Numbered from the stretch's first letter, positions 7,480 through 24,000 are shown. The stretch is 24,000 bases of DNA from an uncultured archaeon (GCA_965552715.1 CBEVTC010000002.1:11927-35926); one strand, 5' to 3'. Notes: generated by a model from the sequence alone, not told the origin. Numbers and translations are program-made.

Positions 7480-7508
7480 TAAAATGTTTATTAAGATTTA
7501 AATATTCA

Positions 7509-7516: not shown

Positions 7517-7542
7517 ATTGTCTTTACATAACGGGTGCGCAT

Positions 7543-8082: not shown

Positions 8083-8086
8083 ACAC

Positions 8087-8548: not shown

Positions 8549-8934
8549 ATGATGATAAATGGGGGGTCGCTCATATTTACTCTTCTGTTAACAACACTAT
8601 CGTTCATATAACGGACCTTACAGGGGCGGAAACGATAGCGAGGTGTTCCGGGGGTGTGATCACGAACAGGGATAAGGACAAGGGTTCGCCCTTCCCTGCC
8701 ATGAAGGCTGCAAGAAAAGTTGCTGAGGAAGCGAAGAGTAAGGGTCTGATAGGAGTTCACCTGAAGATTCGAGCGCAGGGTGGACATAAAAAGAAAATCC
8801 CCGGTTCCGGAGCGCAGCCCACGATACGCGCGCTTGTCAGGGCAGGACTGAAAATAGGAAGGATTGAGGATTCCACACCAATCCCACACGACACCACAAG
8901 GAAAGCTGGGGGCCGAGGCGGAAGGCGGGTATAA
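8545..8934 (+). CDS. rps11: 30S ribosomal protein S11 (uS11)
   Basis: 129 aa. [27 protein letters not shown]...GPGAQ-like [30 protein letters not shown]...GGRGGRRV matches archaeal S11 throughout. ATGA overlap with S4. Confidence 0.93.
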
Positions 8935-8953
8935 TTAATCCAGATGATTATTT

Positions 8954-9946
8954 ATGGCTAAAGGACACAAACCGAAAGCGGGATCAAGGGCATTCTGGCC
9001 GAGAAAGCGGGCGAAAAGGACGTACGCAAGATTCAAGCACTCGAAAGAATCGGAAAAAGTGAAGAAAGCGGGGGAAACGAAACCCATCGAGTTCGGTGGC
9101 TACAAGGCGGGGATGACGCAAGCGGTTTTCACGAACACGAGGAAGGGTAGCGTAACGCAAGGCCAGGATCTTTCGAAACCGGTTTCCGTTCTTGAATGTC
9201 CACCATTATTTGTTTTCGGGATAAAGCTTTACAGGAAAGGTTCCAAGGGTTTCGAAACTTCTGGAATGGTATGGGCAAAGGATTTGAAAAAGGATATCGT
9301 GAGGAAGCTTGATATCCCTAAAAAGAAATCCGAACTCCCTGATCTCGGGGGAAAACTCGGAGAAATCTCTGATATACGCTTGCTCGTACATACACAGCCA
9401 AGGGAATCGGGTCTGAGAAAGAAAAAGCCAGAAGTGTTCGAGATCGACATCTCCGGGACCTTGGAAAACAGATGGAAGTACGCAAAGGAAAAACTGGGGA
9501 AGGAACTCGATGTGTCCGAGGTTTTCGCGGAAGGCGAATATGTTGACGTGAAGGCCGTTAGCAAAGGCAAGGGATTCCAAGGGGTAGTGAAGAGGTTCGG
9601 GGTCAGGATAAGGAGCAGGAAGAACAAGGAGAAAAGAAGGCACATAGGAACGATGGGTCCTGTCACCCCAGGAAGGGTCTTGCCCGGTGTGATTCCCCAG
9701 GCTGGACAGCTCGGCCTCCAGACAAGGACGGAATATAACAAAAGATTGATAAAAATAGGGAATGCCGGCCTCGAAATAAAGGGAGGGTTTGTGAATTACG
9801 GGGAGGTCAAAAAGAACTTCGTCCTGATCGAAGGCTCTCTCCCAGGACCTAAGAAAAGATTCATTCTCTTTAGGAAATCTTTCAGGAAGACCGATGTGAA
9901 GGAACCGGTTGAAGTGAAATCCGTTTCTCTCGAATCCCAACAGTGA
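8954..9946 (+). CDS. rpl3: 50S ribosomal protein L3 (uL3)
   Basis: 330 aa. N-terminal GSRAFWPRKRAKR, central KGKGFQGVVKRFGV and GQLGLQTRTEYNKRLIKIG are diagnostic archaeal L3 segments. Confidence 0.9.
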   Translation: MAKGHKPKAGSRAFWPRKRAKRTYARFKHSKESEKVKKAGETKPIEFGGYKAGMTQAVFTNTRKGSVTQGQDLSKPVSVLECPPLFVFGIKLYRKGSKGFETSGMVWAKDLKKDIVRKLDIPKKKSELPDLGGKLGEISDIRLLVHTQPRESGLRKKKPEVFEIDISGTLENRWKYAKEKLGKELDVSEVFAEGEYVDVKAVSKGKGFQGVVKRFGVRIRSRKNKEKRRHIGTMGPVTPGRVLPGVIPQAGQLGLQTRTEYNKRLIKIGNAGLEIKGGFVNYGEVKKNFVLIEGSLPGPKKRFILFRKSFRKTDVKEPVEVKSVSLESQQ

Positions 9947-10028
9947 ATTTCAAAAGATGACCTGAACTATAAATCCAAGTCATCAATTGCTAATCGTATT
10001 TTTAACCAAGAAATACAAATTAAATTCT

Positions 10029-10535
10029 ATGAATATTTGGTATCTGATAACCCTTATAGGGGAGCCGGAGATGTGGATGGTTTCCACTGGGATTCTTCTG
10101 GTTTTATATTTATTCCTAAGGAAGAAACTGGACAATGAAAAAAAGGATATTGTAAAAAAGGGTTTTTTCGTTTTTATAGTGAGCGTTTGGTTGACGCTGG
10201 GAGTGGTCTTCGGTCTGAAAAGCGTTATAAACATCGAGAGAACCTGCATACCCTGCGAACCTCCTGTGGAGGGGTGCAACCCCTATTGCCCCAGTGACAG
10301 CACATTCCCTTCCGGGCATTCTGCAGTGATATTCGCTGTTTTCTCCTCAATTTACGTGAACATCCGTAAGAAATGGTTTGCCCCCTTGTTCCTGATACCC
10401 TTCTTTGTGTCCATCTCTAGATATTTCCTCTTTGTCCATAACATGATCGATATAGTGTTCGGAACAGTGATAGGCGTTTTCATCCCGATAATCGTGCTCG
10501 CTCTTTATGAGAAAATCCTAGGCTTTAAATCTTAA
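10029..10535 (+). CDS. PAP2-superfamily membrane phosphatase (phosphatidic acid / polyprenyl-diphosphate phosphatase-like)
   Basis: Multi-pass hydrophobic protein with the three PAP2 motifs: K-x6-R (KSVINIERT), PSGHS, and SRYFLFVHNMID (S-R-x5-H-x3-D). The ORF track starts at TTG 9987; the first ATG is 10029. Confidence 0.7.
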   Translation: MNIWYLITLIGEPEMWMVSTGILLVLYLFLRKKLDNEKKDIVKKGFFVFIVSVWLTLGVVFGLKSVINIERTCIPCEPPVEGCNPYCPSDSTFPSGHSAVIFAVFSSIYVNIRKKWFAPLFLIPFFVSISRYFLFVHNMIDIVFGTVIGVFIPIIVLALYEKILGFKS

Positions 10536-11735
10536 AATTCCCCCTATACCGCCCATCTCCTTCAACTGGTTCCCTTCCGTTGTATCGCTAGAAACCATCT
10601 CGACTTCTGTCCCCCTCTCCTCCGCGAGTTTTATAATCTCATCAGTCAAATCCTTCTCCGCGAGTATCTCGTAAAGCTCTTGGCACTTTTCACATTTCTT
10701 TCCCTCTGCTTTCTCCCTTATCATCACCACTTCCTTTTCCTCCCCGCATTTCGGGCAATGAAGCCTTGCCTTCACCCAATCGAGGTGTTCGGAGATAATG
10801 AGTACTTCAACGCTCCCTGTTTTAAGCGTTTCTACAACTTCCTTTATTCCGTATATCGCAAGTCCTGAATCTTTTCCCAGCTCATCGAAGAACCTTCCCA
10901 GCAACTTCTTCTCCTTCATCACAGAAGCTTCCTTCAATGCTTCCTCTGACCTGTTCACGGTCTCATTCAAACCGTATTCCCCTGTATATGAGGTGTCCAC
11001 AGCGGAGAGTATTTTCTTTTGAAAATCGTATCTCAGAAATTTACCCTCGACAAATTTGTCCTTCACATAACCCGGTCCCCCTATTATCACACCCTTCAGA
11101 TCCTTTAACTCGCTGAAGTGTTGAGAAGCGATATCACCGACCTTTTTCATGAAGTCATGAAGTAAACCCTCTCTGACCCTGGCAAAACGGGAGGCTGACC
11201 ACCCCCCTTTATCCGTCTTTCCCGGGACCAAGGATTCCATGTGCTTAAGGGATTTCACCTTTTTTCCATGCAATACCCCTACTTCGGCTTCGGATTTGTC
11301 AAGAACTATCAACCCGTATATCTCCTTCTCCCTTATCATATCCTTTAAAGGGTCAAGGACGAATTTCTGGTCGCACCAGTAAAGCCTCTGTTTTAAGGGC
11401 TCGGGAGGCTCGAGCACGTAAATCTCGATATCCGCGACACCTTCCCTTTCCGAGACATTTCCCGAAAAAATGACCAGACCGTTCTCAGGAGTTCGCTTAT
11501 AGAGTTTCAGATGCTGAATAATCCTCTCGAGCGCGGACATCACGTTCTTCTTAACGGTCTTTGACTTTATGTTCTGGGCAGTGGATTTCTCGTTCGTGAT
11601 CTGATCCACCACATTGTTGAGGTTGTGCCCAGCAGGAATATACACAGAAACGAGCTCGGTATGCCTACCCCTAAACCCGTCTAGTTCTTCGACTAAATCT
11701 TTCAGCCTTCTCTTCCGGATATCCTCCTTCGTCAT
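10518..11735 (-). CDS. prf1: Archaeal peptide chain release factor aRF1 homolog with a non-canonical GGW in place of GGQ
   Basis: NIKS motif (TAQNIKSK, 11562-11573), Y-x-C-x3-F motif (YWCDQKF) and a domain-3 zinc ribbon (CPKCG...CEKCQ) identify aRF1. The GGQ position reads KGGWSASRFARVRE (GGW = 11199-11207). The ORF track starts at GTG 11744. ATG 11735 sits 6 nt after AAGGTG (11742-11747), which serves better as the RBS. Confidence 0.85.
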   Translation of the reverse strand: MTKEDIRKRRLKDLVEELDGFRGRHTELVSVYIPAGHNLNNVVDQITNEKSTAQNIKSKTVKKNVMSALERIIQHLKLYKRTPENGLVIFSGNVSEREGVADIEIYVLEPPEPLKQRLYWCDQKFVLDPLKDMIREKEIYGLIVLDKSEAEVGVLHGKKVKSLKHMESLVPGKTDKGGWSASRFARVREGLLHDFMKKVGDIASQHFSELKDLKGVIIGGPGYVKDKFVEGKFLRYDFQKKILSAVDTSYTGEYGLNETVNRSEEALKEASVMKEKKLLGRFFDELGKDSGLAIYGIKEVVETLKTGSVEVLIISEHLDWVKARLHCPKCGEEKEVVMIREKAEGKKCEKCQELYEILAEKDLTDEIIKLAEERGTEVEMVSSDTTEGNQLKEMGGIGGILRFKA

Positions 11736-11779
11736 AGCAAACACCTTATTTACGAATAGAGTTTAGTTTCGTTTGCTTA

Positions 11780-11787
11780 TATTTAAA
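11780..11787 (-). promoter_or_regulatory. Candidate TATA box (TTTAAATA) for aRF1
   Basis: The minus strand reads TTTAAATA, an exact TTTAWATA match, 45 nt upstream of ATG 11735, leaving room for a short leader carrying the AAGGTG RBS. Confidence 0.4.
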
Positions 11788-11791
11788 AAAA
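11785..11791 (-). terminator. Candidate oligo-T terminator at the 3' end of the propeller array
   Basis: T7 run on the minus strand beginning 8 nt after the stop of the last array gene (TGA 11799-11801). It abuts the aRF1 TATA box. Confidence 0.4.
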
Positions 11792-11798
11792 GCGTATG

Positions 11799-13148
11799 TC
11801 ACACCCTTGTCTGGAATCTAATGAAATTATTCTGGAACATATCGGGATTCAAGGCCAGAACTTCCTCAAACATCACGAAGCTCGTATCGTAATCTGATTT
11901 TGTCTTGTATTCCGTTTCGCTAGAGTATTCGCTTTCGATGTGGTAGTCTGAGAGGGAGATTGCTTCTTCTTGCCTGGACTTGTACCTGTCTTCGCTTATT
12001 ATATCTTCTGTGCGGGTTTCCTTTTTTATCTCCACGCTGAAGAACTCCTGCAGCGGCGGGAGATAGGACTGGGCCATGCTCGAAGTCGGGCATCTCCACA
12101 GTTCCTTTCTCCTGTCAACGTCTATCGCGTACATATAACAGTCCCACGAACCGATGTAAATTATGTTGCCCTTTAACAGGAATTTGCCGAAAAGGCCGCC
12201 CCCTGTCCGGAACCTCCAGACTTCCTTTCCGTTCATGTCAAGGAAGTAAACATTCCCATCCTCACAGCCGAATATGACCATGTTCTTGTAAACCCTGGGG
12301 AACTGGGCGGTTATCGAATCGCCAGCGCGGAACCTCCACAGTTCTTTGCCTTCTAGCGTAAGGGCGTACAAATGACCGTCCCTCGTGCCAAAATAAATTA
12401 TATCATTGTATATGCTGGGAACGCTCCCGCCGACCCCGTATTTTCCTGTTCTGAATCTCCAGATTTCTTTTCCCGTCTTTGTATCTACGGCGTACAGGTA
12501 ATTGTCCATGCAACCAAGGTATACTACACCTTTGTGTATGATGAACGGTGAATTGTTTATCATTTCGTCTCCTGTCTTGAACCTCCAAATCTCCTTCCCT
12601 GTCTTCGCATCAAGGCAGTAGAGGTTGTGGTCATAAGAACTTATGTAAACCTTCCCGTCCTGAACCAGGGAAGCTGAACATACTTCGCCACCTGTCTTGA
12701 ATCTCCATATTTCCTCTCCTTTCTCCGCGTCAAGGCAGTAAACATTTTCGTCCCTTGAGCCGAAATAAACCCTCCCTTCGTAAACAAATGGTGAACTGAA
12801 TATTTCACCGGATGTTTTGAAAACCCAGAGAGCTTCCCTGCTTTTTATGTCAACCCTGTACATGTTTCCGTCATAAGAACCTATCATTATGGATTCCTTG
12901 AACAGGACAGGCGAAGAGCCTAGAATCATGTCATTGGTCTTGAACCTCCACGCAACTTTACCGGTTTTGGAATTCACCGCATAAAGATAACCATCATTCG
13001 CCCCGAAATAAACCAATCCTCTATACATTAAGGGGTTGCTGTCTATGCTTCCTCCCTTTGTGATTCTCCATATCCTGTCGTATGATTTTATCTTCTTCAC
13101 TTCGAAATCCTCAAGCTCTGCTTCAAAACCTTCAAACTCGAAATCCAT
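11799..13148 (-). CDS. PQQ-like 8-bladed beta-propeller repeat protein, array copy 1 (3'-most)
   Basis: 449 aa. Eight ~40-aa blades ending in G-K-E-[IV]-W-R-F-[KR]-T-G-type motifs (GKVAWRFKT ... RKELWRCPT). N-terminus MDFEFEGFE. S-[DE]-Y hexad tail present. Unique C-terminus, because no gene overlaps it. Confidence 0.85.
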   Translation of the reverse strand: MDFEFEGFEAELEDFEVKKIKSYDRIWRITKGGSIDSNPLMYRGLVYFGANDGYLYAVNSKTGKVAWRFKTNDMILGSSPVLFKESIMIGSYDGNMYRVDIKSREALWVFKTSGEIFSSPFVYEGRVYFGSRDENVYCLDAEKGEEIWRFKTGGEVCSASLVQDGKVYISSYDHNLYCLDAKTGKEIWRFKTGDEMINNSPFIIHKGVVYLGCMDNYLYAVDTKTGKEIWRFRTGKYGVGGSVPSIYNDIIYFGTRDGHLYALTLEGKELWRFRAGDSITAQFPRVYKNMVIFGCEDGNVYFLDMNGKEVWRFRTGGGLFGKFLLKGNIIYIGSWDCYMYAIDVDRRKELWRCPTSSMAQSYLPPLQEFFSVEIKKETRTEDIISEDRYKSRQEEAISLSDYHIESEYSSETEYKTKSDYDTSFVMFEEVLALNPDMFQNNFIRFQTRV

Positions 13149-14473
13149 AACTCCTCACCTTCTAAAACTCCTTCAAACAAAACAAACTCCACATCATAGT
13201 CACTTTTTTGCTTGTATTCGCTTTCACTCGAATACTCACTCTCTACGTGATAGTCAGAAAGCGAAACGATTTCTTCCTTCTTCTTGTACTTGCTTTCCTC
13301 TACAGCCTCTTTAATCCCCGTTTCCTTTTTGATCTCCATTTTGAAAACTTCATAGGCAGGAGGAATATAAGCGGGTGTGCTGCTGCTTGTTGAGAATCTC
13401 CATGCTTCTTCATGTGTCCGTACGTTTACCTTATATAAATAGCAATCCCAGGAACCGAAGAATATGTAATCCTTCCACAGGAAAGCGGATGTCGCAACCA
13501 GACCTCCTGTTTTGAATCTCCACACTTCTTTCCCTGTTTCAATATCGAGAACATAAAGATTCCCGTCCTCCGAGCCGAAGTACACCTTTGAATCATGAAT
13601 TAACGGAAGCTTGTCTATCACTCCTTCTCCCTGCGTTTTAAACCTCCATATTTCCTTCCCTCTCTCTGCCTCTATCGCATAAAAAATCCCGTCCCTTGAT
13701 CCGTAATATAAAACGCCTTTATGTACAGAAGGGCATGTTGCATTACCGTATTTCCCTGTCTTGAACCTCCATACCTCCTTCCCTGTCGAAATATCAACTG
13801 CATAGAGGTTGTTATCGAATGAACTCACGTATACTATGTTCTTGTAGAATGTGAATTGACCTGAGTTGAGGATTTCCCCTCCTGTTTGGAAGCGCCATAT
13901 CTCTTTGCCGTTCTCGGCATCAAGACAATAGAGATTGCTATCATAAGAACCGATAAAGAGTTTCCCATCCTTAACAGAAGGGCTTGAAATGACCTCGTCA
14001 CCTGTCTTGAACCGCCAAACAAGTTCACCTTCATCTGCTTTCAAACAATAAGCATAACCATCCCTACTCCCGAAGTAAACCTTTCCTTTGTGAACGAACG
14101 CTCTTAGGCTTATTCCACCTCCTGTCCTGAAACGCCAAGAGAGCTTGCCCGTGTTTTTGTTTATCACATAAAAATACCCGTCATGAGAACCAACGTAAAG
14201 ATAGTTTCCATGTATTATAGGAGAAGAATCGAGAAAAACGCCACCTGTTTTGAATCTCCAGATTTCCTCTCCGCTTTCACAATCAATACAGTAAACGTAC
14301 TGGTCCATTACAGCTATGTATATCTTGTCATTTTCTATTACAGGTTGCGCACAAACGCTCCCTCCCTCTTTCACCTTCCATACCCTGTCGAATTTCTTTA
14401 CCTGCTTGATTTCCATATCTTCTAGTTCAGTCTCGAAATCGGATGGTTCGAAACCTTCAAATCCGAAGTCCAT
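13097..14473 (-). CDS. PQQ-like 8-bladed beta-propeller repeat protein, array copy 2
   Basis: 458 aa. Eight W-R-F-K-T-G blades (SGEEIWRFKTGG ... THEEAWRFSTSS). N-terminus MDFGFEGFE, tail SLSDYHVESEYSSESEYKQKSDYD. 52-nt overlap with copy 1. Confidence 0.85.
   Translation of the reverse strand: MDFGFEGFEPSDFETELEDMEIKQVKKFDRVWKVKEGGSVCAQPVIENDKIYIAVMDQYVYCIDCESGEEIWRFKTGGVFLDSSPIIHGNYLYVGSHDGYFYVINKNTGKLSWRFRTGGGISLRAFVHKGKVYFGSRDGYAYCLKADEGELVWRFKTGDEVISSPSVKDGKLFIGSYDSNLYCLDAENGKEIWRFQTGGEILNSGQFTFYKNIVYVSSFDNNLYAVDISTGKEVWRFKTGKYGNATCPSVHKGVLYYGSRDGIFYAIEAERGKEIWRFKTQGEGVIDKLPLIHDSKVYFGSEDGNLYVLDIETGKEVWRFKTGGLVATSAFLWKDYIFFGSWDCYLYKVNVRTHEEAWRFSTSSSTPAYIPPAYEVFKMEIKKETGIKEAVEESKYKKKEEIVSLSDYHVESEYSSESEYKQKSDYDVEFVLFEGVLEGEELWISSLKVLKQSLRISK
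13151..13159 (-). promoter_or_regulatory. Embedded Shine-Dalgarno (GGTGAGGAG) for copy 1
   Basis: Purine-rich anti-16S-like motif 2 nt upstream of ATG 13148, inside the coding tail of copy 2. Confidence 0.45.
13152..13282. repeat. 131-nt perfect direct repeat, copy A (C-terminal tail coding region of array copy 2)
   Basis: Base-by-base comparison shows 13152-13282 is identical to 14477-14607 (offset 1325). The flanks diverge at 13151/14476 and 13283/14608. Confidence 0.9.
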
Positions 14474-15786
14474 ATTTCCTCACCTTCTAAAACTCCTTCA
14501 AACAAAACAAACTCCACATCATAGTCACTTTTTTGCTTGTATTCGCTTTCACTCGAATACTCACTCTCTACGTGATAGTCAGAAAGCGAAACGATTTCTT
14601 CCTTCTTTTCCTTGTATTTGTCTTCCTGAACACTTTCGTCCATGTGTGTCGACTTCTTTATTTCAGCCTTGAAGCTGGAATAGGGAGACATGACAGATGA
14701 TGGCGTGTTGTTGCTTGTTGTAAACCTCCATATTTCTTTACCTGTCAAAGCATCAAGAGCATGCACGTGACAGGCCCACGTTCCGAATAAAATCTTTCCT
14801 TCATGGTGGGAAGCGATATCCCACATCAGCCCTTCTATGTTGAACCTCCACAGTTCTTTGCCCTCCAGACTGATACATCTGAAGTAACCGTCTTCAGACC
14901 CGAAGTAAAGTTTGTCACCAACAGGCAGAGGCTGTGTAATAAGACTACCTGTTCTGAACCTCCATATTTCTTTGCCTTCAAGTGAAATAGCGAATAGTAT
15001 TCCGTCACGGGTTCCTTGATACAGAACTCCTTTGTATAGAAGAGGTGGTTCTGATATGCCGTATTTTCCCGTTCGGAACCTCCATACCTCCTTCCCTGTT
15101 CTGTGGTCGAGACAGTAGGTGTTGCAGTCGAATGAACCAAAGAAAATCATATTCCCTAATATCGGACAAGCTGCATCATTATGTATTAAATCACCAGTCT
15201 TGAAACGCCATATCTCCTTTCCGGTTGAAAAGTCCAGACAGTAAAAGTTAGAGTCAACAGAACCTATAAACACCTTGTTTTTGTAAATAGTTGCTCCTGA
15301 AAGGATGTCATCTCCTGTCTTAAATGTCCATTTTTCCTTTCCTGTTTTAGCGTTTATGGCATACAAGTATCCTCCCTTTGTTCCAACAACCAAAATTCCA
15401 TTCCCATAAATAGGCCCGTCGAACATTTCAGCATTCGCTCGAAACCTCCAGATTTCCTTGCCAGTTTTTCTATCCAATGCATAGCAGTTCTGGTCAAAAC
15501 AGGAGAAAAATACTTTATCACCCACAACTTCCGCTCGCCCCATTATAATTCCTCCTGTGGCGAATCTCCAGATTTCCTTCCCCGTTTCCAAATCAACTGC
15601 GTAAAAATACTTGTCAGCTGCCCCGAAATAAGCGACCCCTTCATGAATTTTTGTGTAGCAAATACTTCCTCCAGTCCCAATTTCCCACAGTCTTTCGAAT
15701 CTCTTGACTCTCTTTATCTCTACATCTTCAATGTCTACATCGAAGTCCGTGAATCCGGACTCAAATGTTCCGAAGCCGAAGTCCAT
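14422..15786 (-). CDS. PQQ-like 8-bladed beta-propeller repeat protein, array copy 3
   Basis: 454 aa. Eight blades (TGKEIWRFATGG ... TGKEIWRFTTSN). N-terminus MDFGFGTFE. The tail region is nucleotide-identical to copy 2 over 131 nt. Confidence 0.85.
   Translation of the reverse strand: MDFGFGTFESGFTDFDVDIEDVEIKRVKRFERLWEIGTGGSICYTKIHEGVAYFGAADKYFYAVDLETGKEIWRFATGGIIMGRAEVVGDKVFFSCFDQNCYALDRKTGKEIWRFRANAEMFDGPIYGNGILVVGTKGGYLYAINAKTGKEKWTFKTGDDILSGATIYKNKVFIGSVDSNFYCLDFSTGKEIWRFKTGDLIHNDAACPILGNMIFFGSFDCNTYCLDHRTGKEVWRFRTGKYGISEPPLLYKGVLYQGTRDGILFAISLEGKEIWRFRTGSLITQPLPVGDKLYFGSEDGYFRCISLEGKELWRFNIEGLMWDIASHHEGKILFGTWACHVHALDALTGKEIWRFTTSNNTPSSVMSPYSSFKAEIKKSTHMDESVQEDKYKEKKEEIVSLSDYHVESEYSSESEYKQKSDYDVEFVLFEGVLEGEEIWTSDLKVSNHPISRLN
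14477..14607. repeat. 131-nt perfect direct repeat, copy B (C-terminal tail coding region of array copy 3)
   Basis: Identical to 13152-13282. Explains the identical spurious plus-strand peptides (PHLLKLLQTKQTPHHSHFFACIRFHSNTHSLRDSQKAKRFLPS) in ORFs 13036-13314 and 14316-14672. Confidence 0.9.
14478..14484 (-). promoter_or_regulatory. Embedded Shine-Dalgarno (GGTGAGG) for copy 2
   Basis: 4 nt upstream of ATG 14473, inside copy 3. Confidence 0.45.
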
Positions 15787-17102
15787 ATTCTTTCAACCTC
15801 CATGATATTTTCAAATATTACAAAACTTGTGTCGTAGTCTGATTTTTGTTTATACTCCGATTCGCTCGAGTATTCAGTGGTGATTTGGTAGTCCGATAGC
15901 GACACGGTTTCTTCTTTCTTTTTAGATTTATATTTTTCCTCTGTTATCGCGTCTTCAACGTGCGTTTCCTTCTTCACTTCAGCCTCCCATGCATCAGTAG
16001 GAGGAGGCCATTCTGCCTGGGCAGTGTTACTGGTTGCGAATCTCCATAATTCCTTCCTTGTCGCGATGTCAACTGCATATAAATGACAGTCCCAGGAAGT
16101 GAAATAAATCACTCCGTCTTTTATGACAGGTTGCCAGAAAACATCACCGTCTGTCCTAAATCTCCACACCTCTTTTCCTTCCATTGTCAAGCAATAAAGA
16201 TTGTTGTCTTCTGAACCTACATAAATAAGGTTGTCATGAATTGTTGGCAACGCAACAAGACCACCGGTTTTAAACCTCCATATCTCCTTGCCGTTTTCGT
16301 CAACTGCGTAGAGTATTCCATCCCTTGAATGTATGTAAAGGACATTTTCGTGTATAACAGGTCCTGCAGCACTTCCGTATTTGCCTGTTTTAAACCTCCA
16401 GATTTCCTTCCCTGTTTCCGCGTTCAGGCAGTAAAGATAATTATCGAAAGATGGGACAAAAACCCTTCCTTTCCATACCTTTCCAGGATAAACGTCGTAA
16501 ATTTCATCTCCTGTCTGGAATCTCCATATTTCTTTTCCAGTCTCTTCATCAATGCAGTAAAAATTCGAATCAAAAGAAGCTATGAAAACCCTTCTTTCAT
16601 GAACAAGAGGTGTCGCAACTATCCAGTCGCCTGTTTTGAATCTCCAGATTTCTTTTCCAGTATTCTTGTCCACGCAATAAAGATAACCATCCTTTGAGCC
16701 GATGTAAACCCTGTCTCCACTTAACATCGCGCAGGCGAGTATCTCACCGCCTGTCTTGAAATTCCAGATAAGGCTTCCGTCATGAGGGTTTATTGCATAC
16801 AGATTGTAATCATAATTTCCTATGAATATCGTTTTACCATCGGTAACAGGAGAAGATTCCATGAAAATTCCGTTGGCCTTCATCCTCCATCTTTCTATTC
16901 CAGTTCTCCTGTCCACAGCATAAAGAAAATTATCTACTGAACCGAACATTATCAAATCCTCGAATATAAGGGGTTTCTGGTCTATGCTCCCTCCCTTTCC
17001 AATCCTGAAAAGCCTGTCGAACTTCTTGGTCTTCTTCATCACAATATCTTCTATTTCCACATCAAAGTCTGAAGTTTCGAAACTCTTGAACCCGATATCC
17101 AT
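15735..17102 (-). CDS. PQQ-like 8-bladed beta-propeller repeat protein, array copy 4
   Basis: 455 aa. Same blade periodicity. N-terminus MDIGFKSFE, tail SLSDYQITTEYSSESEYKQKSDYD. Confidence 0.85.
   Translation of the reverse strand: MDIGFKSFETSDFDVEIEDIVMKKTKKFDRLFRIGKGGSIDQKPLIFEDLIMFGSVDNFLYAVDRRTGIERWRMKANGIFMESSPVTDGKTIFIGNYDYNLYAINPHDGSLIWNFKTGGEILACAMLSGDRVYIGSKDGYLYCVDKNTGKEIWRFKTGDWIVATPLVHERRVFIASFDSNFYCIDEETGKEIWRFQTGDEIYDVYPGKVWKGRVFVPSFDNYLYCLNAETGKEIWRFKTGKYGSAAGPVIHENVLYIHSRDGILYAVDENGKEIWRFKTGGLVALPTIHDNLIYVGSEDNNLYCLTMEGKEVWRFRTDGDVFWQPVIKDGVIYFTSWDCHLYAVDIATRKELWRFATSNTAQAEWPPPTDAWEAEVKKETHVEDAITEEKYKSKKKEETVSLSDYQITTEYSSESEYKQKSDYDTSFVIFENIMEVERIWTSASEHLSPDSRTSM
15796..15801 (-). 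promoter_or_regulatory. Embedded Shine-Dalgarno (GGAGGT) for copy 3
   Basis: 9 nt upstream of ATG 15786, inside copy 4, within the codons atg gag gtt gaa. Confidence 0.55.
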
Positions 17103-18421
17103 AATTCCTCCTCCTTTGTAGCGTTTTCAAAAATGACCAAGTCTATGTCATACTGCGACTTCTGCTTGTAATCTGAAACTGTTGTCGAGTATTCAGATTT
17201 CACCCCGTAATCATCGAGTTTTGCCTCTTCTGTTTTGGAAAGGTAGTGTTTATCAGAAGTTTCCACGTTTAAGTCGGTCTTCAGTTCAGGTTTAATAATA
17301 ACCTGTTCTTTTATCTTAAGTTGAGACTGCATTTTACTTGAGGTTTCAAATCTCCAAACTTCTTCACCTGTTTTCGCTTCCAGTGCGTACAGATAACAGT
17401 CGTAAGATCCGAAAACTATCATACCGTTCCAGTAGACCGCATCAGCCCATATTGCTGCACCAGTCTTGAATTTCCACAGCATTTTACCATCATTCGCTGT
17501 CAATGCATACAAGTTCCCGTCAACTGAACCAAAATAAACTACATTATCATGTATAAGCGGGTGAATGTCGCCCACGAAATTTTCAGCCCTGAACCTCCAG
17601 ATCTCTTTGCCAGTTTCCATATCTAGGGCGTAAAAGTTATTGTCATGAGCCCCGAAGTACAAAACCCCATTGCACAGAAGAGGTGTCACTTCTGTCCTGT
17701 CTCCTGTCTTGAACCTCCATACCTCTTGGCCTGTTTCCATATTAACAGCATAAAGATATCTGTCAGAAGAAGGGAAGTACATTATCCCTTTTTGGTGCGG
17801 AGCAGGTCTGTAGTGAAGGATGGCTCCACCTGTCTTGAACCTCCATACCTCCTTCCTAGTTTTTATGTCAACAGCATAAACATAGCCATCACCTGAACCA
17901 ACGTACATTATCCCGTTCAATACCAGTGGTCCTGTACCTACCCAGTCACCTGTCTTGAATCTCCATAGTTCCTGGCCTGTTTTTTCGTCAACTGCATATA
18001 CATTCCCATCGAATGATGAGAAGTACAGAATATCGTCATGTAAAGAAGCTTGCGAAGTTATCCTCCCGCCGGTTTTGAACTTCCATACGAACTCCCCCTT
18101 AGTTATATCCACCTTATACATATACCCACCATGGCATCCGTGATAGTAATTGTTTCCATACAATGAAGGCCTGGCTTCAACGAAACGGCCGGAAGCCTTT
18201 AGCTTCCATACTTCTTTTCCGTTTCTAAGATCAACAGCGTATATGTAATTATCGCATGCACCGAAGTACATTATATCGTCTTTGATGACACCGCAATTTG
18301 AAATGCTCCCGCCGAATCCCACGTCCCAGCTGACGCTGTAGAACTTTGGCTTCTCCACCACAAGGTCTGTCATCTCTGTCTCAAATTCAGACGATCCAAT
18401 TCCTTCGAGACCAAACTCCAT
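17051..18421 (-). CDS. PQQ-like 8-bladed beta-propeller repeat protein, array copy 5 (most divergent)
   Basis: 456 aa. Eight blades (NGKEVWKLKASG ... TGEEVWRFETSS). Degenerate termini: MEFGLEGIG at the N-terminus and tail DDYGVKSEYSTTVSDYKQKSQYD. Confidence 0.82.
   Translation of the reverse strand: MEFGLEGIGSSEFETEMTDLVVEKPKFYSVSWDVGFGGSISNCGVIKDDIMYFGACDNYIYAVDLRNGKEVWKLKASGRFVEARPSLYGNNYYHGCHGGYMYKVDITKGEFVWKFKTGGRITSQASLHDDILYFSSFDGNVYAVDEKTGQELWRFKTGDWVGTGPLVLNGIMYVGSGDGYVYAVDIKTRKEVWRFKTGGAILHYRPAPHQKGIMYFPSSDRYLYAVNMETGQEVWRFKTGDRTEVTPLLCNGVLYFGAHDNNFYALDMETGKEIWRFRAENFVGDIHPLIHDNVVYFGSVDGNLYALTANDGKMLWKFKTGAAIWADAVYWNGMIVFGSYDCYLYALEAKTGEEVWRFETSSKMQSQLKIKEQVIIKPELKTDLNVETSDKHYLSKTEEAKLDDYGVKSEYSTTVSDYKQKSQYDIDLVIFENATKEEELWISGSRVSKLQTLMWK
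17107..17115 (-). promoter_or_regulatory. Embedded Shine-Dalgarno (AGGAGGAGG) for copy 4
   Basis: 4 nt upstream of ATG 17102, inside copy 5. Confidence 0.55.
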
Positions 18422-19743
18422 AACTCCTCCACCTCCATAACATCTTCAAACATCACGAAACTTGTATCATAATCACTCTTCTGTTTGTATTCGCTTTCCA
18501 TGCTGTATTCGCTAGTAACGTGGTAGTCGGAAAGGGAAACGGTCTCTTCTTTCTTCTTTTTGTACTTTTCCTTGGTTTCCACTTCCTCTGATACGCCCGA
18601 CTTGCTGACTTCGAGTTTAAATGAATCAAAAGGTGGCGGGAGAGGCGAGATGGTAAGAGTGGAAGTTGCAAACCTCCATTTTTCTTCACCAGTATCAGCG
18701 TCCAGGGCGTACAAATGGCAGTCCATTGAATTGAAGAATATGGTGTCGTTGAAGACAACCGCAGAGGTGTAGATACAGAAAGATGCTCTATACCTCCAGA
18801 TTTCCTTACCATCAAAATCCAGGCAGTAGAAGTTCCCGTCGCCCGCTCCGAAGTAAATCCTGTTCTTGTATAAGAGGGGTATCGCATCTATTGGTTCGTC
18901 CCTTTCTGTCCTGAACCTCCATATCTCCTTTCCTGTCTTATCATCAACAGCATAAAATATACCGTCTCTTGAACCGTGGTAGATAACGCCGTTGTAAAAG
19001 ACAGGGCTTCCTGCATTTCCGTATTTACCAGTTTTAAATCTCCAGATTTCTTTTCCTGCTTCAATATCAACACAGTAAAGGTAACTGTCAAAGGACGTGA
19101 AATATATTTTCCCTTCCCTCGCTAGGAAAGACCTGTCGTTGTGTATCTCTCCGCCAGTCTTGAACCTCCAAATTTCTTTTCCTGTTTTCTTGTCCAAACA
19201 GTAAAAGTTCTTATCGAAAGAACCGTTGAATATCATATTCTTGTGTACTGTAGGGGCAGAAGCTATCTCGTCTCCTGTTCTGAACCTCCAAATCTCTTTG
19301 CCTGTTTTTGAATCAATGGCGTAAAGGTAACCGTCTCTAGACCCCACGTAAACTATACCCTCTGAAACAACGGGTGAAGCATCTATCTTCCCCCCTGCCC
19401 TGAACGACCATTTGAATTCACCTGTCTTTGCATCAAGAGAATAAATATTGTGGTCAAAAGACCCGATGTAAAGAATGCCTTCTGAAACGGCAGGCGTGCT
19501 TTCACAGATACCATCTCCTGTCCTGAATTTCCACAACTCCTTTCCCGTTAAAGCGTCAACAGCATAAACATAATTATCCATTGCACCGAAATATATTACT
19601 CCATCTACAAGAGTGGGACCATTGTTTATACTTCCTCCGAATCCGACCTCCCACATACGGTCGAACTTCTTTGTTCTCCTGACTTCCAAATCCTCTAATT
19701 CGACATTAAAGTCCGAGAATGCGGTTTCAAATCCGATATCCAT
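18370..19743 (-). CDS. PQQ-like 8-bladed beta-propeller repeat protein, array copy 6
   Basis: 457 aa. Eight blades. N-terminus MDIGFETAF, tail SLSDYHVTSEYSMESEYKQKSDYD. Confidence 0.85.
   Translation of the reverse strand: MDIGFETAFSDFNVELEDLEVRRTKKFDRMWEVGFGGSINNGPTLVDGVIYFGAMDNYVYAVDALTGKELWKFRTGDGICESTPAVSEGILYIGSFDHNIYSLDAKTGEFKWSFRAGGKIDASPVVSEGIVYVGSRDGYLYAIDSKTGKEIWRFRTGDEIASAPTVHKNMIFNGSFDKNFYCLDKKTGKEIWRFKTGGEIHNDRSFLAREGKIYFTSFDSYLYCVDIEAGKEIWRFKTGKYGNAGSPVFYNGVIYHGSRDGIFYAVDDKTGKEIWRFRTERDEPIDAIPLLYKNRIYFGAGDGNFYCLDFDGKEIWRYRASFCIYTSAVVFNDTIFFNSMDCHLYALDADTGEEKWRFATSTLTISPLPPPFDSFKLEVSKSGVSEEVETKEKYKKKKEETVSLSDYHVTSEYSMESEYKQKSDYDTSFVMFEDVMEVEELWSLVSKELDRLNLRQR
18424..18436 (-). 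promoter_or_regulatory. Embedded Shine-Dalgarno (GGAGGTGGAGGAG) for copy 5
   Basis: Double GGAGG motif 2-9 nt upstream of ATG 18421, inside copy 6. Confidence 0.55.
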
Positions 19744-21053
19744 ATTCTCTCCTCCTCCATTACTCCTTCAAATGCAACCCATTGCGTACCATAATCGGTA
19801 TCAGCCTTGTAATCGCTCGTCGCAGAATATTCGCTCTCGATGTGATAATCGGTTAGCGAAACCGTCTTCTGCTTTTTCGATTTATACTTGCTCTCGGAAA
19901 CCTCGTCCTCTACACGGGCCTCTTTCTTAAGTTCCATTGAGAATTCATCATGAGGCGGGGGAGCTTTCGAAGGTGTCTGAGAACTCGTTCCGACTCTCCA
20001 TATCTCTTTTTGTGTGTTCATGTCTATTGCATAAAAATGGCAGTCCATTGAACCTACCAGAATCATGTTTTTATAAATACTTGGAAAGTCATAAGAACCG
20101 CCCTCACCAAACCTGAATCTCCACAACTCTTTGCCTTCGATTGAAAGAACATACAGATTTCCATCTTCTGAAGTGAAGTAAATTTTCTCTTCATGTATTA
20201 TTACGCTAATAATCAGACCGCCTGCCCTGAATCTCCACCTCTCTTTACCTTCAAGTGAAACGGCAAAAACTATCCCCTCTCTTGAAGGGAAAAACAGTGT
20301 ATCTCCATAAATGGAAGGAGGCCCGTCAACGCCATACTTTCCTGCTTTGAATCTCCAGATTTCCTTTCCTGTTTCGACATCCAATGCGTACAAATAATTA
20401 TCAAATGAACCGAAATATACGATATTTTCATGGACGGGACAGGGTCTGTCATGAATGATTTCCCCTCCTACTTTAAACCTCCATAATTCATTTCCACTGT
20501 TCTTGTCAACACAGTAAAAATATCCGTCGAAACCTCCGAAAAGAATTCTGTTTCTATAATCTGTGACACCGCAAGCAACCTCATCTCCGGTCTTGAATCT
20601 CCATTTCAGTATACCATCCAATCCAATTGAATAAACATATCCATCTTTGGAACCAACATACACTCCATCCTCTTTTAGTGTGGGACCCACGGATATTGGT
20701 CCGCCTGTCTTGTATCTCCACAATTCCTTGCCAGTTCGCGTATCAATCAGATAAAGAAAAGCATCAAAACTTCCCACCGCTATCATGCCATTTACAACAG
20801 ACGAAGGCGTTCCGAATACACCTCCACCTGTCCTGAATCTCCACATCGTTTTTCCAGTGTCTACATCGACAGCATACAAATAATTGTCCATTGAACCGAA
20901 ATATGCGATATTCTTATCTAATACATGAAAGGTTACACTCCCGCCTTTACTCCACTTCCAAATTCTATCGAACTTCTTTGTTCTCTTAACTTCAAGTTCC
21001 TCAACATCTACATCAAGGTCTGAGGTTTCAAATCCCTCGAATCCGAAGTCCAT
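19695..21053 (-). CDS. PQQ-like 8-bladed beta-propeller repeat protein, array copy 7
   Basis: 452 aa. Eight blades. N-terminus MDFGFEGFE, tail SLTDYHIESEYSATSDYKADTDYG. Confidence 0.85.
   Translation of the reverse strand: MDFGFEGFETSDLDVDVEELEVKRTKKFDRIWKWSKGGSVTFHVLDKNIAYFGSMDNYLYAVDVDTGKTMWRFRTGGGVFGTPSSVVNGMIAVGSFDAFLYLIDTRTGKELWRYKTGGPISVGPTLKEDGVYVGSKDGYVYSIGLDGILKWRFKTGDEVACGVTDYRNRILFGGFDGYFYCVDKNSGNELWRFKVGGEIIHDRPCPVHENIVYFGSFDNYLYALDVETGKEIWRFKAGKYGVDGPPSIYGDTLFFPSREGIVFAVSLEGKERWRFRAGGLIISVIIHEEKIYFTSEDGNLYVLSIEGKELWRFRFGEGGSYDFPSIYKNMILVGSMDCHFYAIDMNTQKEIWRVGTSSQTPSKAPPPHDEFSMELKKEARVEDEVSESKYKSKKQKTVSLTDYHIESEYSATSDYKADTDYGTQWVAFEGVMEEERIWISDLKPHSRTLMSN
19751..19758 (-). promoter_or_regulatory. 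Embedded Shine-Dalgarno (GGAGGAGG) for copy 6
   Basis: 7 nt upstream of ATG 19743, inside copy 7. Confidence 0.55.
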
Positions 21054-22372
21054 ATTCCATCAACCTCCAAATTTCCTTCGAACATAATGAAGCTCGTGTC
21101 GTAGTCTGATTTCTGTTTGTACTCCGATTCACTAGAATACTCGCTTTCGATTTGGTAGTCGGAAAGGGAAACGGTCTCTTCTTTCTTCTTTTTGTATCTG
21201 CTCTTTTCAGCAGCTTCTTCCATCCCAGTTTCCTTTTTTATCTCTGCCTCAAAGCACTCGTAAGCAGGTGGTAAAGGTGCGGGTGTTAATGTACTCGTTG
21301 GGGTATTCCAGATTTCCTTTCCTGTGTCAGGGTCTATTGCATACAAATGACAATCCCAGGAACCGAAGTACAATACACCATCTATTTCCAAAACAGAAGT
21401 ATAAACGCTTCCGCCTGTCCTGAATCTCCACAGTTCATTGCCGTTCAAATCCAAACAGTAAACATTGCTGTCTCCTGAACCAAAATATACCTTGTCTTTG
21501 AAAACCAACGGATACTTATCAGTAGCATCACCGCCTGTCCTGAATCTCCACAATTCCTTGCCGTTCAAGGAAATGGCGTAAAGTATCCCGTCCCTGCTTG
21601 TGTAGTATACAACATCGTTGTATACCGAAGCCGTGCCGCAGTTTCCATACTTACCTGTCCTGAATCTCCACAGCTCCTTTCCTGATTGAAGGTCAACAGC
21701 GTACAGGAAGTTATCGAAAGATGCAAAGTAAACTACGCCCTTGTGAACTGCAATGGTGTAATCATTTTCTATCTCCCCTCCAGTCCGGAATCTCCATATT
21801 TCCTTACCAGTTTCCACATCAAGACAATATAAATTCTTGTCAAAAGACCCGAAAACTATTCTTCCTTCAACTACATTCGGGGAAGAAACAACTTCGTCAC
21901 CAGTTCTGAATCTCCACAGTTCCTGACCAGTTAAACTGTTAACCGCATAAAGGTAACCATCTTTTGAACCGAAATACAAGATGTTTTTGTCGATAAATCC
22001 TGTTGTGTTTATCTCCCCTCCGGTCTTGAAACGCCAGGCCTCTTCACCTCTTTTCGAGTCTATTGCATACATGTTTCCATCAAACGTTCCTATGTACACT
22101 ATGGAGTTAGCTGCAGCAGGAGAGGAGTCGAGTATCTTCCCTCCTGTGTTGAACTTCCACAAAATTTTACCCATTTTGGGGTCTACCGCGTAAACATAAT
22201 GATCCATCGCACCAAAATACAGAATTCCTTCATAGTACAGCGGTCTTCCACACACACTCCCGCCAAATCCACATTTCCAAATCCTGTCGTATTTCTTCTT
22301 CTTTTTAACACTAACATCTTCCACATCTACATCAAAGTCTGTGGCTTCAAAACTTTCGAATCCGATATCCAT
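21008..22372 (-). CDS. PQQ-like 8-bladed beta-propeller repeat protein, array copy 8
   Basis: 454 aa. Eight blades. N-terminus MDIGFESFE, tail SLSDYQIESEYSSESEYKQKSDYD. Confidence 0.85.
   Translation of the reverse strand: MDIGFESFEATDFDVDVEDVSVKKKKKYDRIWKCGFGGSVCGRPLYYEGILYFGAMDHYVYAVDPKMGKILWKFNTGGKILDSSPAAANSIVYIGTFDGNMYAIDSKRGEEAWRFKTGGEINTTGFIDKNILYFGSKDGYLYAVNSLTGQELWRFRTGDEVVSSPNVVEGRIVFGSFDKNLYCLDVETGKEIWRFRTGGEIENDYTIAVHKGVVYFASFDNFLYAVDLQSGKELWRFRTGKYGNCGTASVYNDVVYYTSRDGILYAISLNGKELWRFRTGGDATDKYPLVFKDKVYFGSGDSNVYCLDLNGNELWRFRTGGSVYTSVLEIDGVLYFGSWDCHLYAIDPDTGKEIWNTPTSTLTPAPLPPAYECFEAEIKKETGMEEAAEKSRYKKKKEETVSLSDYQIESEYSSESEYKQKSDYDTSFIMFEGNLEVDGIWTSDSRDLKPQTLM
21063..21068 (-). promoter_or_regulatory. 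Embedded Shine-Dalgarno (GGAGGT) for copy 7
   Basis: 9 nt upstream of ATG 21053, inside copy 8. Confidence 0.55.
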
Positions 22373-23688
22373 ATTCCGTCAACCTCCATATTTCCTTCGA
22401 ACATAACGAAGCTCGTGTCGTAATCGCTTTTCTGCTTGTACTCGCTTTCGCTTGAATATTCGCTAGTAACGTGATAATCTGAGAGGGATACGGTTTCTTC
22501 TTTCTTTTTAGATTTATATTTTTCCTCGCTTACAGCATCCTCTATGTGTGTTTCCCTCTTCAGCTCTGCCCTGAAATTGCAATGCGGGGGTGGTTCGTAA
22601 GATTGTTTCAGGGTGTTTGTGGCGAACCTCCAGACCTCTTTTCCTGTCTCAGCATTAATGGCGTAGATATGGCAGTCCCATGAACCGAAGTATATCACGT
22701 TGTCATGGAGAACAGGGGAACTGTAAATGTATCCGCCTGTTTTGAACCTCCATGTCTCTTTCCCGTCCAAAGTTAAACAATACATATTGAAATCCTCTGT
22801 TCCGAAGTAAACCCTGTCCTTGCAAATCAAAGGCCTCTGGCTCAGGGTTTCTCCCGTCACGAATCTCCACAGCTCTTTCCCTTCCATCGAAAGGCAGTAA
22901 AATGTTCCGCCTCTCTCTCCGTGATAGATTCTGTTGCCGTGTATTACGGGCATGCCCGCGTTGCCGAATTTCCCAGTCCTGAACTTCCAGATTACCTTTC
23001 TGGTGTTTATGTCCAGTGCGTAAAGATAATTGTCGAATGAAGCGAAATAGAGGATTCCGTCCTTCATGAGTGGTGGATAATGCCAGAATAGTTCTCCTCC
23101 TGTCTTGAACCTCCATATCTCCTTCCCTGTCTCCGCGTCCAGAACGTAAACATTCTCGTCATAAGACCCTATGTAAACCCTTCCTTCGTGAACCAGCGGA
23201 GCGGCGTTAATCTCATCGCCCGTAAGGAACCTCCAGATTTCCTCCCCATTATCGGCTCTTACAGCGTAAACATTCATGTCAGTGGAGCCGAAGTAAACCA
23301 CGTCGTCTTTGTAGTAGGGACTACCGAATATCTTCCCACCAGTCTTGAACCTCCACAAAAGGTTTCCGGTTTTCAAATCAAGCGCGTAGATGTAACCGTC
23401 ATAGGATGTGGTGAAAATCCTCTCCCCGTCGCTACAGGGGGTGGACATTATGATTCCACCTGTCTTGTATTTCCACACAACTTCGCCTGTTTTTGAATCG
23501 AGGGCGTAAAAATAATGGTCACATGACCCGAAATGAGCAATACCGTTAATTATTATAGGGGTGGATTGAACGCTTCCTCCTTCGCCTACTCCAAGCATCC
23601 TGTCAAATTTCTTGAACTTGACTATCCTGACATCCTCTATTTCTGTCTCAAAATCAGAGGACTCGAAACCTTCAAATCCGATATCCAT
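22327..23688 (-). CDS. PQQ-like 8-bladed beta-propeller repeat protein, array copy 9
   Basis: 453 aa. Eight blades. N-terminus MDIGFEGFE, tail SLSDYHVTSEYSSESEYKQKSDYD. Confidence 0.85.
   Translation of the reverse strand: MDIGFEGFESSDFETEIEDVRIVKFKKFDRMLGVGEGGSVQSTPIIINGIAHFGSCDHYFYALDSKTGEVVWKYKTGGIIMSTPCSDGERIFTTSYDGYIYALDLKTGNLLWRFKTGGKIFGSPYYKDDVVYFGSTDMNVYAVRADNGEEIWRFLTGDEINAAPLVHEGRVYIGSYDENVYVLDAETGKEIWRFKTGGELFWHYPPLMKDGILYFASFDNYLYALDINTRKVIWKFRTGKFGNAGMPVIHGNRIYHGERGGTFYCLSMEGKELWRFVTGETLSQRPLICKDRVYFGTEDFNMYCLTLDGKETWRFKTGGYIYSSPVLHDNVIYFGSWDCHIYAINAETGKEVWRFATNTLKQSYEPPPHCNFRAELKRETHIEDAVSEEKYKSKKKEETVSLSDYHVTSEYSSESEYKQKSDYDTSFVMFEGNMEVDGIWISDSKVLKPQTLM
22382..22387 (-). promoter_or_regulatory. 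Embedded Shine-Dalgarno (GGAGGT) for copy 8
   Basis: 9 nt upstream of ATG 22372, inside copy 9. Confidence 0.55.
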
Positions 23689-24000
23689 ACTATTTCAACC
23701 TCCATATTTCCTTCGAATATAACGAAGCTCGTGTCGTAATCGCTTTTCTGCTTGTACTCGGATTTAGTCGAATATTCGCTTGTGACGTGGTAGTCGCTAA
23801 GGGAAACTGTTTTCTCTTTTTTCTCTTTGTATTTCTCCTCACTTATTGGTTCCTCTATACGAGTATCCTTCTTAACTTCCGCCTCGAAAACCTCATGAAC
23901 CGGTGGTATTTCAGATTGAACCATGCTTGAAGTAGGGGTCCTCCAAACCTCCTTTCGAGATTCGATGTCAACACAGTAAAGATAACAGTCCCAGCTACCG
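23637..24000 (-). CDS. PQQ-like beta-propeller repeat protein, array copy 10, C-terminal part only (5' end beyond the window)
   Basis: The ORF track lists 23637-23924 from an internal Met. The same frame stays open to 24000 and reads GSWDCYLYCVDIESRKEVWRTPTSS, which is blade 8 of the family. The standard charged linker and the tail SLSDYHVTSEYSTKSEYKQKSDYD follow. Confidence 0.8.
   Translation of the reverse strand, partial: GSWDCYLYCVDIESRKEVWRTPTSSMVQSEIPPVHEVFEAEVKKDTRIEEPISEEKYKEKKEKTVSLSDYHVTSEYSTKSEYKQKSDYDTSFVIFEGNMEVEIVWISDLKVSSPLILRQK
23698..23703 (-). promoter_or_regulatory. Embedded Shine-Dalgarno (GGAGGT) for copy 9
   Basis: 9 nt upstream of ATG 23688, inside copy 10. Confidence 0.55.

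Follow-up and report, generated by a model that had tools for sequence, protein, structure and literature searches.

A variable array of overlapping genes for Tyr-tailed, eight-bladed propellers in an archaeon of the Aenigmatarchaeota

Eight-bladed propellers of the pyrroloquinoline quinone (PQQ)-like superfamily serve very different purposes. BamB (YfgL), an outer-membrane assembly lipoprotein of diderm bacteria, has no catalytic activity and serves only as a scaffold that binds proteins. PQQ_2/PQQ_3 propellers are binding or sensor modules in YxaL of Bacillus and at the C-terminus of AfsK-type Ser/Thr kinases, and the PQQ-dependent alcohol and glucose dehydrogenases belong to the same eight-blade 'W-motif' superfamily. 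Archaea have stand-alone propellers of this kind, of which 3HXJ (deposited as 'Pyrrolo-quinoline quinone', and presumably from Methanococcus maripaludis) is the closest solved natural structure to the proteins described here; it has no known function and so explains nothing about them. The literature that we searched describes no tandem array of such stand-alone archaeal propellers. Here we analyse a 24,000-nucleotide stretch of DNA from an uncultured archaeon (GCA_965552715.1, CBEVTC010000002.1:11927-35926; the window), in which at least ten propeller genes follow one another on the minus strand. We propose, with a probability of roughly one half, that this array is a variable repertoire of binding modules that have one docking or assembly signal in common.

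Nine complete open reading frames (ORFs) of 449-458 aa and the 3' end of a tenth are arranged head-to-tail on the minus strand between 11799 and 24000. Their starts are 1310-1325 nt apart and all these distances equal 2 modulo 3, so that each downstream gene lies in the -1 frame of its predecessor. The genes, at least ten paralogs that diverged long ago, form one co-directional cluster, with pairwise identities of 37-55% between the proteins and only 51-61% between the DNA of the gene bodies. No interrupting gene was seen within the array. A sequence-only reading of the window had described it in these terms (nine full ORFs on the minus strand and a tenth cut by the edge, in units of 1310-1325 bp, sharing about half of their residues and uninterrupted by other genes), and the ORF listing and the measured identities agree with it. 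It had also stated that the array runs past position 24000, where we indeed find the C-terminal 120 codons of the tenth copy, covering positions 335-450 of our family profile with 172 bits. The features of the array are listed below; other loci and genomes have L numbers, cassette types result from the clustering of 81 copies at ≥58% identity, and dN/dS is the ratio of nonsynonymous to synonymous substitution rates.

23640..24000, minus strand: 3' end of the tenth propeller gene, which runs past the edge of the window; its frame-2 translation ends GSWDCYLYCVD...SLSDYHVTSEYSTKSEYKQKSDYDTSFVIFEG
22327..23688, minus strand: w2, 453 aa, cassette type R; 701 bits on the family profile, 88% identical to L011_3
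21008..22372, minus strand: w3, 454 aa, cassette type C (the type that opens the array in five other genomes); assigned with PF13570/PF13360, the family profile and AlphaFold2
19695..21053, minus strand: w4, 452 aa, type H; orthologue L003_3 96% identical, dN/dS 0.19
18370..19743, minus strand: w5, 457 aa, type B; dN/dS 0.12; orthologues L003_4 (90% identity), L011_5 (83%), L013_5 (79%) and L008_2 (77%)
17051..18421, minus strand: w6, 456 aa, U in the type string; the most divergent copy, the whole unit absent from L003 (1319-nt indel)
15735..17102, minus strand: w7, 455 aa, type D; orthologue L003_5 94% identical, dN/dS 0.20
14422..15786, minus strand: w8, 454 aa, type I; orthologue L003_6 88-91% identical, dN/dS 0.11
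13097..14473, minus strand: w9, 458 aa, type J; absent from L003
11799..13148, minus strand: w10, 449 aa, type A, last gene of the array; its body is absent from L003, where the tail is kept
22396..22521, minus strand: C-tail module of w2, from the alignment: Lys-rich linker, 4 x S[DE]Yxxx, FxxFE
21077-21202, 19767-19892, 18445-18570, 17126-17254, 15810-15935, 14497-14622, 13172-13297 and 11865-11990, minus strand: C-tail modules of the other copies
22327..22372, minus strand: junction of w2 and w3; the w3 ATG lies in the -1 frame, 46 nt before the w2 stop, and its ribosome-binding site, GGAGGT, is 8-10 nt 5' of it, within the w2 codons for M-E-V
23640-23688, 21008-21053, 19695-19743, 18370-18421, 17051-17102, 15735-15786, 14422-14473 and 13097-13148, minus strand: the other junctions, with the same layout
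11745..11798, minus strand: end of the array; the w10 stop is followed immediately by a T7 run (11785-11791), which overlaps the TATA-like box TTTAAATATAA

The source organism is a tiny symbiotic archaeon of the Aenigmatarchaeota (DPANN). Its archaeal identity follows from the genes around the array (pyr, ribosomal and aRF1), the last of which encodes a release factor of the archaeal/eukaryotic type. All named homologues of the window propellers come from Candidatus Aenigmarchaeota/Aenigmatarchaeota, even if the best database match of w3 is only 60% identical. Among the 43 genome loci with the family, 40 are from Aenigmatarchaeota or archaeal metagenome-assembled genomes (MAGs). To judge from these matches, the family is specific to Aenigmatarchaeota.

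Searches with profile hidden Markov models placed all nine complete copies above the thresholds of PF13570 (Beta-prop_ACSF4, formerly PQQ_3; 180-336 bits, cut-off 133) and of PF13360 (PQQ_2; 134-205 bits, cut-off 27.6). Each copy scores 554-719 bits on our own family profile, which excludes a chance match, and contains eight W[RK]F strand-D motifs; the blades of a copy are on average 0.30-0.42 identical to one another. We modelled two copies as monomers with AlphaFold2: w3, the central copy, and w6, the most divergent one. Both gave closed eight-bladed propellers with four-stranded blades (predicted local distance difference test, pLDDT, >90; predicted template modelling score 0.76-0.77), the bodies of which hold 31-33 strands of at least three residues. 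The pLDDT exceeds 90 at residues 20-380 of w3 and over about residues 30-370 of w6, and falls below 50 at residues 1-18 and 380-454 of w3. The propeller body thus delimited takes ~340 aa. The signature of eight PQQ-enzyme or BamB-like repeats and the eight-bladed fold, both of which had been read from the DNA, are borne out by these profiles, motifs and models.

Foldseek gave a template modelling score of ~0.9 (target-normalised) to eight-bladed designer propellers, and the nearest solved structures are designer propellers derived from archaeal PQQ proteins, 3HXJ, BamB and YxaL. The designer proteins (Cake/Scone/Bagel) rank at the top because they are idealised versions of archaeal PQQ propellers. 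Like the array proteins, 3HXJ, Cake8, Scone and Bagel have eight blades of ~40 residues with high internal symmetry, and the family profile matches Cake8 with E=2e-142 and 3HXJ with E=3e-103. At 330 residues, against about 450 here, 3HXJ would, to judge by its size, have no space for the ~75-residue tail region.

In sequence and predicted fold, the array proteins are putative binding propellers, non-enzymatic, eight-bladed and BamB/PQQ-like. Their automatic database names ('PQQ-binding-like beta-propeller repeat protein', 'BamB') and their resemblance to both groups might instead mean that they are ordinary PQQ-dependent dehydrogenases or orthologues of BamB, which we find hardly credible. They have PF13360 in common with BamB and match it with a Foldseek probability of 1.0, at ~19-21% identity, but their scores are far under the curated cut-offs of the BamB models (TIGR03300, 167-263 bits for a cut-off of 285.2; NF008351, 113-116 for 423). 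BamB is single-copy and has a lipoprotein signal, whereas the array proteins are multicopy and lack the lipobox Cys, with N-termini that read MDFGFEGFE... and contain no hydrophobic stretch. They are also encoded by an archaeon, and we know of no outer membrane, BAM complex or BamA in archaea. The dehydrogenases differ even more. PF01011 matches the array proteins, but the alcohol and glucose enzymes are ~570-700 residues long, and the full-length dehydrogenase architecture ~570-780 aa, with a propeller of about 600 residues instead of about 340, and contain PQQ/metal-site insertions that are absent here; the scores of the dehydrogenase models are accordingly low (TIGR03075, 109-138 bits for a cut-off of 480; TIGR03074, 54-79 for 833). 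As for the sensor-like propellers, YxaL is secreted via a signal peptide and the AfsK-type ones are fused to a kinase; neither is arrayed or has the termini described below.

No other described system accounts for the array, as the sequence-only reading had supposed. Every match to the curated NCBIfam models is below its cut-off, and a search of the literature on Aenigmarchaeota/DPANN for PQQ, propellers or BamB found no description of this family. Three copies searched against the defence models of PADLOC-DB 2.0 gave no match at E≤0.01 and no relatives were found in IMG/VR, so we rejected a defence or viral origin. A few Pfam matches to the 'immunity' families SUKH-4/SUKH_5 were taken as spurious: they cover 27-40 residues of the GKEIWRF blade motif and score at or below threshold.

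The propeller body is flanked by two segments that are disordered in the AlphaFold2 models (~18 residues at the N-terminus and ~75 at the C-terminus, pLDDT <50) and strongly conserved in the family. The N-terminal peptide is acidic, with 7-10 D/E among its first 30 residues, and M1, F5, F13 and E18 are nearly invariant among 94 family members. In the same members, the C-tail has four invariant Tyr spaced six residues apart (SDYHVE-SEYSSE-SEYKQK-SDYD). The acidic N-peptide, the propeller and the 4 x [ST][DE]Y repeats occur together in 9/9 window copies. The tail is the most conserved segment among the paralogs (amino-acid identity 0.69-0.79), while its synonymous sites are no less randomised than those of the rest of the gene: at identical residues, codon sharing is 0.47-0.49 in the tail and 0.38-0.51 in the body. 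Conservation therefore acts on the protein and does not result from gene conversion, which we rejected as its cause with a single exception. The C-tails of w8 and w9 (14497-14622 and 13172-13297) have 95% DNA identity and encode identical protein over ~45 residues, against only 54% for the bodies, which indicates a probable local gene-conversion tract, at the place where the unit indels described below break.

The tail seems peculiar to these proteins. In 696 kb of loci, the motif is found in propeller ORFs only (101/101). A tail-only profile searched against 1.84 billion representative proteins gave 42 matches, which are the family, its fragments or low-complexity noise, and revealed no other protein family with the Tyr tail among these representatives; Pfam, NCBIfam and PADLOC have no model that covers either terminus. 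The family-specific terminal modules noticed in the window are thus real and conserved across the family alignment. Distant single-copy relatives stop right after the same Tyr repeats (e.g., ...EYSVKSEYSFKSEYQTKGEYR), and the extra ~20-30 C-terminal residues of the array members are mainly coding cover for the ribosome-binding site and start of the next gene. In a distant subfamily with 30-40% identity, found in tandem arrays of 2-4 in three MAGs of Aenigmatarchaeota (L035, L036, L039), the C-terminus is different but related (...DYGxxxxxYxxxxxxDYLGKKKRGY).

None of the array copies has a signal peptide or a membrane segment (the maximum Kyte-Doolittle value of a 19-mer is 1.56), consistent with the cytoplasmic character first ascribed to them. 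The window contains an internal control for how exported proteins look in this organism, since a CARDB/NEW3-domain exported protein, encoded at 2-946 on the minus strand by a gene that runs off the window start and of which only the 5' part is in the window, has a classical signal peptide (MKKKIISVSFAILLLLAISTGAYA).

Variation among the paralogs is distributed unevenly over the blades. Identity is lowest in the innermost strand A (0.19) and the A-B turn (0.26), intermediate in the D-A loops (0.40) and highest in the outer strand D (0.65). In the usual propeller geometry, the D-A loops and strand A line the top face and the central channel, where propellers usually bind their ligands. Identity of the D-A loops is 0.80-0.95 within groups of orthologues and 0.42 between groups.

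Related genomes have the same type of array at the same site, in 2 to at least 11 copies and with different content. Bounded arrays have two copies (L001, L005, L008), four (L006), five (L013), six (L049) or eleven (L009), and arrays cut by contig ends have at least six, seven or nine. The clustering of the copies resulted in 35 cassette types, 21 of which are common to more than one locus. The succession of types in seven loci is as follows:

Window: ? R C H B U D I J A
L003: ? G H B D I
L011: E A R K B G I Q
L013: C D A S B
L006: C K A D
L005: C A
L008: C B

The array thus appears as a combinatorial set of cassettes, with at least 21 shared types that occupy the same site in differing combinations and orders. 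The closest genome, L003 (GCA_030605605.1), has flanking housekeeping DNA ~95% identical to that of the window and is collinear with it over four units, at ~91% identity. It contains orthologues of w4, w5, w7 and w8 with 88-96% protein identity, and has different cassettes upstream. It lacks w6, by the 1319-nt indel, and w9 with w10, by an indel of 2632 nt, and the breakpoints of these indels are inside a tail/junction sequence of 111-152 nt that aligns to both sides. By all appearances, then, homologous recombination within the conserved tail/junction DNA adds and removes whole units.

Since the contigs of related MAGs often end within arrays, and the tail DNA of w8 and w9 is up to 95% identical, we considered whether the copy number could be produced by mis-assembly of repeats. 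The odds of this are close to nil: the bodies of the units are too different in DNA sequence (51-61%), every copy has distinct orthologues elsewhere, L003 is an independent MAG with four collinear units, and bounded arrays of five, six and eleven copies are found on long contigs.

Cassettes that are retained seem to be under purifying selection, with dN/dS of 0.11-0.20 between orthologues, compared with 0.10-0.34 for aRF1, L3, pyrE and pyrF. Their synonymous divergence (dS) from L003, including that of the genes at 14422-15786 and 18370-19743, spans 0.08-0.59, against 0.02-0.26 in the flanking housekeeping genes, and the substitutions are clustered in blocks. This suggests mosaic recombination with diverged alleles. 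Some family members have decayed (L001 8657-10049, L032 9622-11366, protein P0249), with one copy split into 169 + 277 aa and another interrupted by a stop. In a variant of 212 aa, all blades but the first and the last are missing, while both termini are kept.

The junctions between genes are very regular. At every junction of the window, the next gene begins in the -1 frame, with an ATG located 46-52 nt ahead of the stop of the preceding gene; this ATG has GGAGGT or GGAGG 8-10 nt upstream, encoded in the conserved M-E-V-E of the upstream protein. Such Shine-Dalgarno (SD)-like sites precede 69 of the 79 family starts. The upstream stop, in turn, is formed where an xTA codon precedes a G or A in the sequence for the conserved E-[IVL]-E of the downstream protein. 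Over 77 junctions the mode of the overlap is 52 nt, and all but eight are within 43-73 nt; the overlap in L015 is of 11 nt and in another frame, and at three junctions the genes are ~80 nt apart.

A constant -1 relation, with overlaps of similar length in most relatives, could be the mark of programmed frameshifting that would translate the array into a giant beads-on-a-string propeller polyprotein. We regard this as very improbable and rejected it, the idea being largely refuted by the junctions themselves. Each downstream gene has its own conserved SD site and ATG, the upstream stops come from xTA codons in a conserved protein motif, no fused products are found in databases, and the nine window overlaps contain no slippery heptamer (X_XXY_YYZ), a single AAATTTG being found 21 nt upstream of one ATG. 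Together with the short overlap and the gaps in relatives, this implies that the overlap is neither a frameshift device nor obligatory. What the initial description called translational chaining is an overlapping junction with a separate ribosome-binding site for each gene. The overlap is more simply the presumed junction of the founding tandem duplication, inherited by every unit.

How could such proteins work? Each propeller would bind its own ligand, via paralog-specific D-A loops and the central channel, and the invariant termini would attach every paralog to a single shared partner, or the paralogs to one another. Coupling of this kind is, most plausibly, what the terminal peptides do, given their conservation. 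The array would then act as an exchangeable repertoire of adaptors for substrates or targets, for which the best analogy may be the interchangeable WD40/Kelch substrate receptors that have one docking motif, and not the subunits of a fixed complex. This is close to one of two hypotheses put forward initially, a diversified repertoire of surfaces on a constant scaffold, which fits the variation in strand A, the A-B turn and the D-A loops and the shuffling of the cassettes.

The other hypothesis was an ordered, stoichiometric hetero-oligomer. In its general form, the paralogs would assemble into a scaffold, lattice or fibre in which the tail or N-peptide of one subunit binds the propeller of another. 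In its favour, the two disordered and strongly conserved termini are common to all paralogs, the overlapping genes point in one direction and are probably transcribed together, and propellers commonly bind short linear peptides. We nevertheless consider such an assembly quite improbable. Copy number ranges from 2 to at least 11, composition and order vary between genomes, single units come and go between near-identical genomes (with flanks ~95% identical), some genomes have decayed or split copies, and the AlphaFold2 models show no docking of the tail in cis. Variable copy number, unconserved order and the presence or absence of units argue in particular against an ordered, stoichiometric complex. 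Natural fusions of two members would have been a sign of association, but an artificial w2+w3 query retrieved only unrelated multi-propeller proteins of 25-33% identity. These objections bear on assembly in a fixed order; homotypic or promiscuous assembly is possible, including self-assembly by promiscuous contacts between tails and propellers.

Several observations weigh against our proposal of a variable repertoire with a common docking signal. Strand A and the A-B turn are the fastest-evolving elements also within groups of orthologues (identity 0.53-0.75), so that part of the variability may reflect relaxed constraint and not specificity. The monomer models show no docked conformation of either terminus. 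Purifying selection and the existence of orthologues with 77-96% identity would also fit housekeeping roles of single paralogs. The indels that separate L003 from the window are deduced from two short-read MAG assemblies. Finally, the genomic neighbours are housekeeping genes and provide no functional hint.

A more specific possibility is that these are host-interaction factors, exported or transferred by an episymbiont, with propellers that bind host molecules and termini that act as a non-classical signal for secretion or translocation. Such a role would resemble that of the expanded ankyrin/TPR/LRR effectors of obligate bacterial symbionts, the signals of which are C-terminal and acidic. 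Like the propellers, these effector families, and recombining cassette arrays, combine a constant scaffold with variable binding surfaces, and the effectors also come as many paralogs in reduced genomes, vary in presence between strains and have conserved terminal segments. In favour of this role, genomes of this lineage have ~1 Mb and yet the window spends at least 13 kb on the family, cassettes differ in presence between ~95% identical genomes, and the acidic disordered C-tail and the N-peptide are invariant in all paralogs and found nowhere else. The analogy crosses folds and domains of life, however, and no secretion system or signal was identified: the propellers lack a signal peptide or membrane anchor whereas the exported CARDB protein has a classical one, no secretion-system genes are near any array, and such a signal is not known from any system of archaea. 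Selection is also purifying (dN/dS 0.11-0.20) and not diversifying. We consider export to the host unlikely. In its boldest version, the Tyr-tailed propellers would be symbiosis factors of DPANN, a strain-variable kit for binding targets whose termini form a new archaeal signal for sorting or assembly to the host-contact apparatus, by delivery or polymerisation; this we put forward as speculation with rather long odds.

The propeller fold, the superfamily and the database labels of these proteins were already known. What is new is a phylum-restricted subfamily with a tail of Tyr hexapeptides and an acidic N-terminus, its arrays of overlapping genes at a fixed locus, and the combinatorial turnover of its cassettes. 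The interaction of DPANN with their hosts is little known, and a family that takes more than 1% of a ~1 Mb genome, with gene content that differs between near-identical genomes, is a good candidate for an adaptive function related to interaction. As baits, the invariant 25-residue Tyr-repeat peptide and the acidic N-terminal peptide could give experiments a concrete handle. The locus also illustrates, cleanly and in nature, how cassettes turn over through recombination at a conserved inter-unit junction. If the proteins were to be ordinary cytoplasmic scaffolds, the array would be a well-documented but modest expansion of paralogs.

The site of the array is conserved. In seven loci (L001, L003, L005, L008, L011, L013, L049) it is located between a divergent FEN1-DUF498 pair and aRF1 - PAP2 - L3. 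By analogy with L011, L013 and L049, the 5' end of the window array is expected to have a promoter region of ~300 nt beside DUF498/FEN1. In the window, aRF1 is encoded on the minus strand (10518-11735/11744), with AAGGTG before the ATG at 11735; the alternative GTG start at 11744 in the ORF listing is probably not the true one. The T7 run and the TATA-like box TTTAAATATAA that it overlaps take up 11777-11791 (minus strand), and the box is ~45 nt ahead of that ATG. Since the box and the T7 run separate the array from aRF1, the latter is probably transcribed from its own promoter, as a neighbour and not a member of an operon. We rejected an operon link also because other arrays are found elsewhere (L009, L048). 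The 1.1 Mb contig_22876 (L048) has two copies at the aRF1 locus and a second array of three (6392-10353) between rpS2 and the gene of quinolinate phosphoribosyltransferase, and thus one genome can contain several arrays.

On the plus strand (1107-10535) the window encodes pyrB, pyrI, pyrD, pyrK, pyrC, pyrE, a SLOG gene, pyrF, S13, S4, S11, L3 and PAP2. The SLOG gene (5991-6518, plus strand; cluster 4, PF18306, LOG-like) is inserted between pyrE and pyrF, as it is in L003, and is absent from the syntenic pyr operons of L001 and L049, where pyrE abuts pyrF. Downstream of the bounded six-copy array of L049 (JGI 3300035701, Ga0373625_0000008), aRF1 (10413-13151) reaches 912 aa, with an intein containing a LAGLIDADG endonuclease inserted in eRF1 domain 2.

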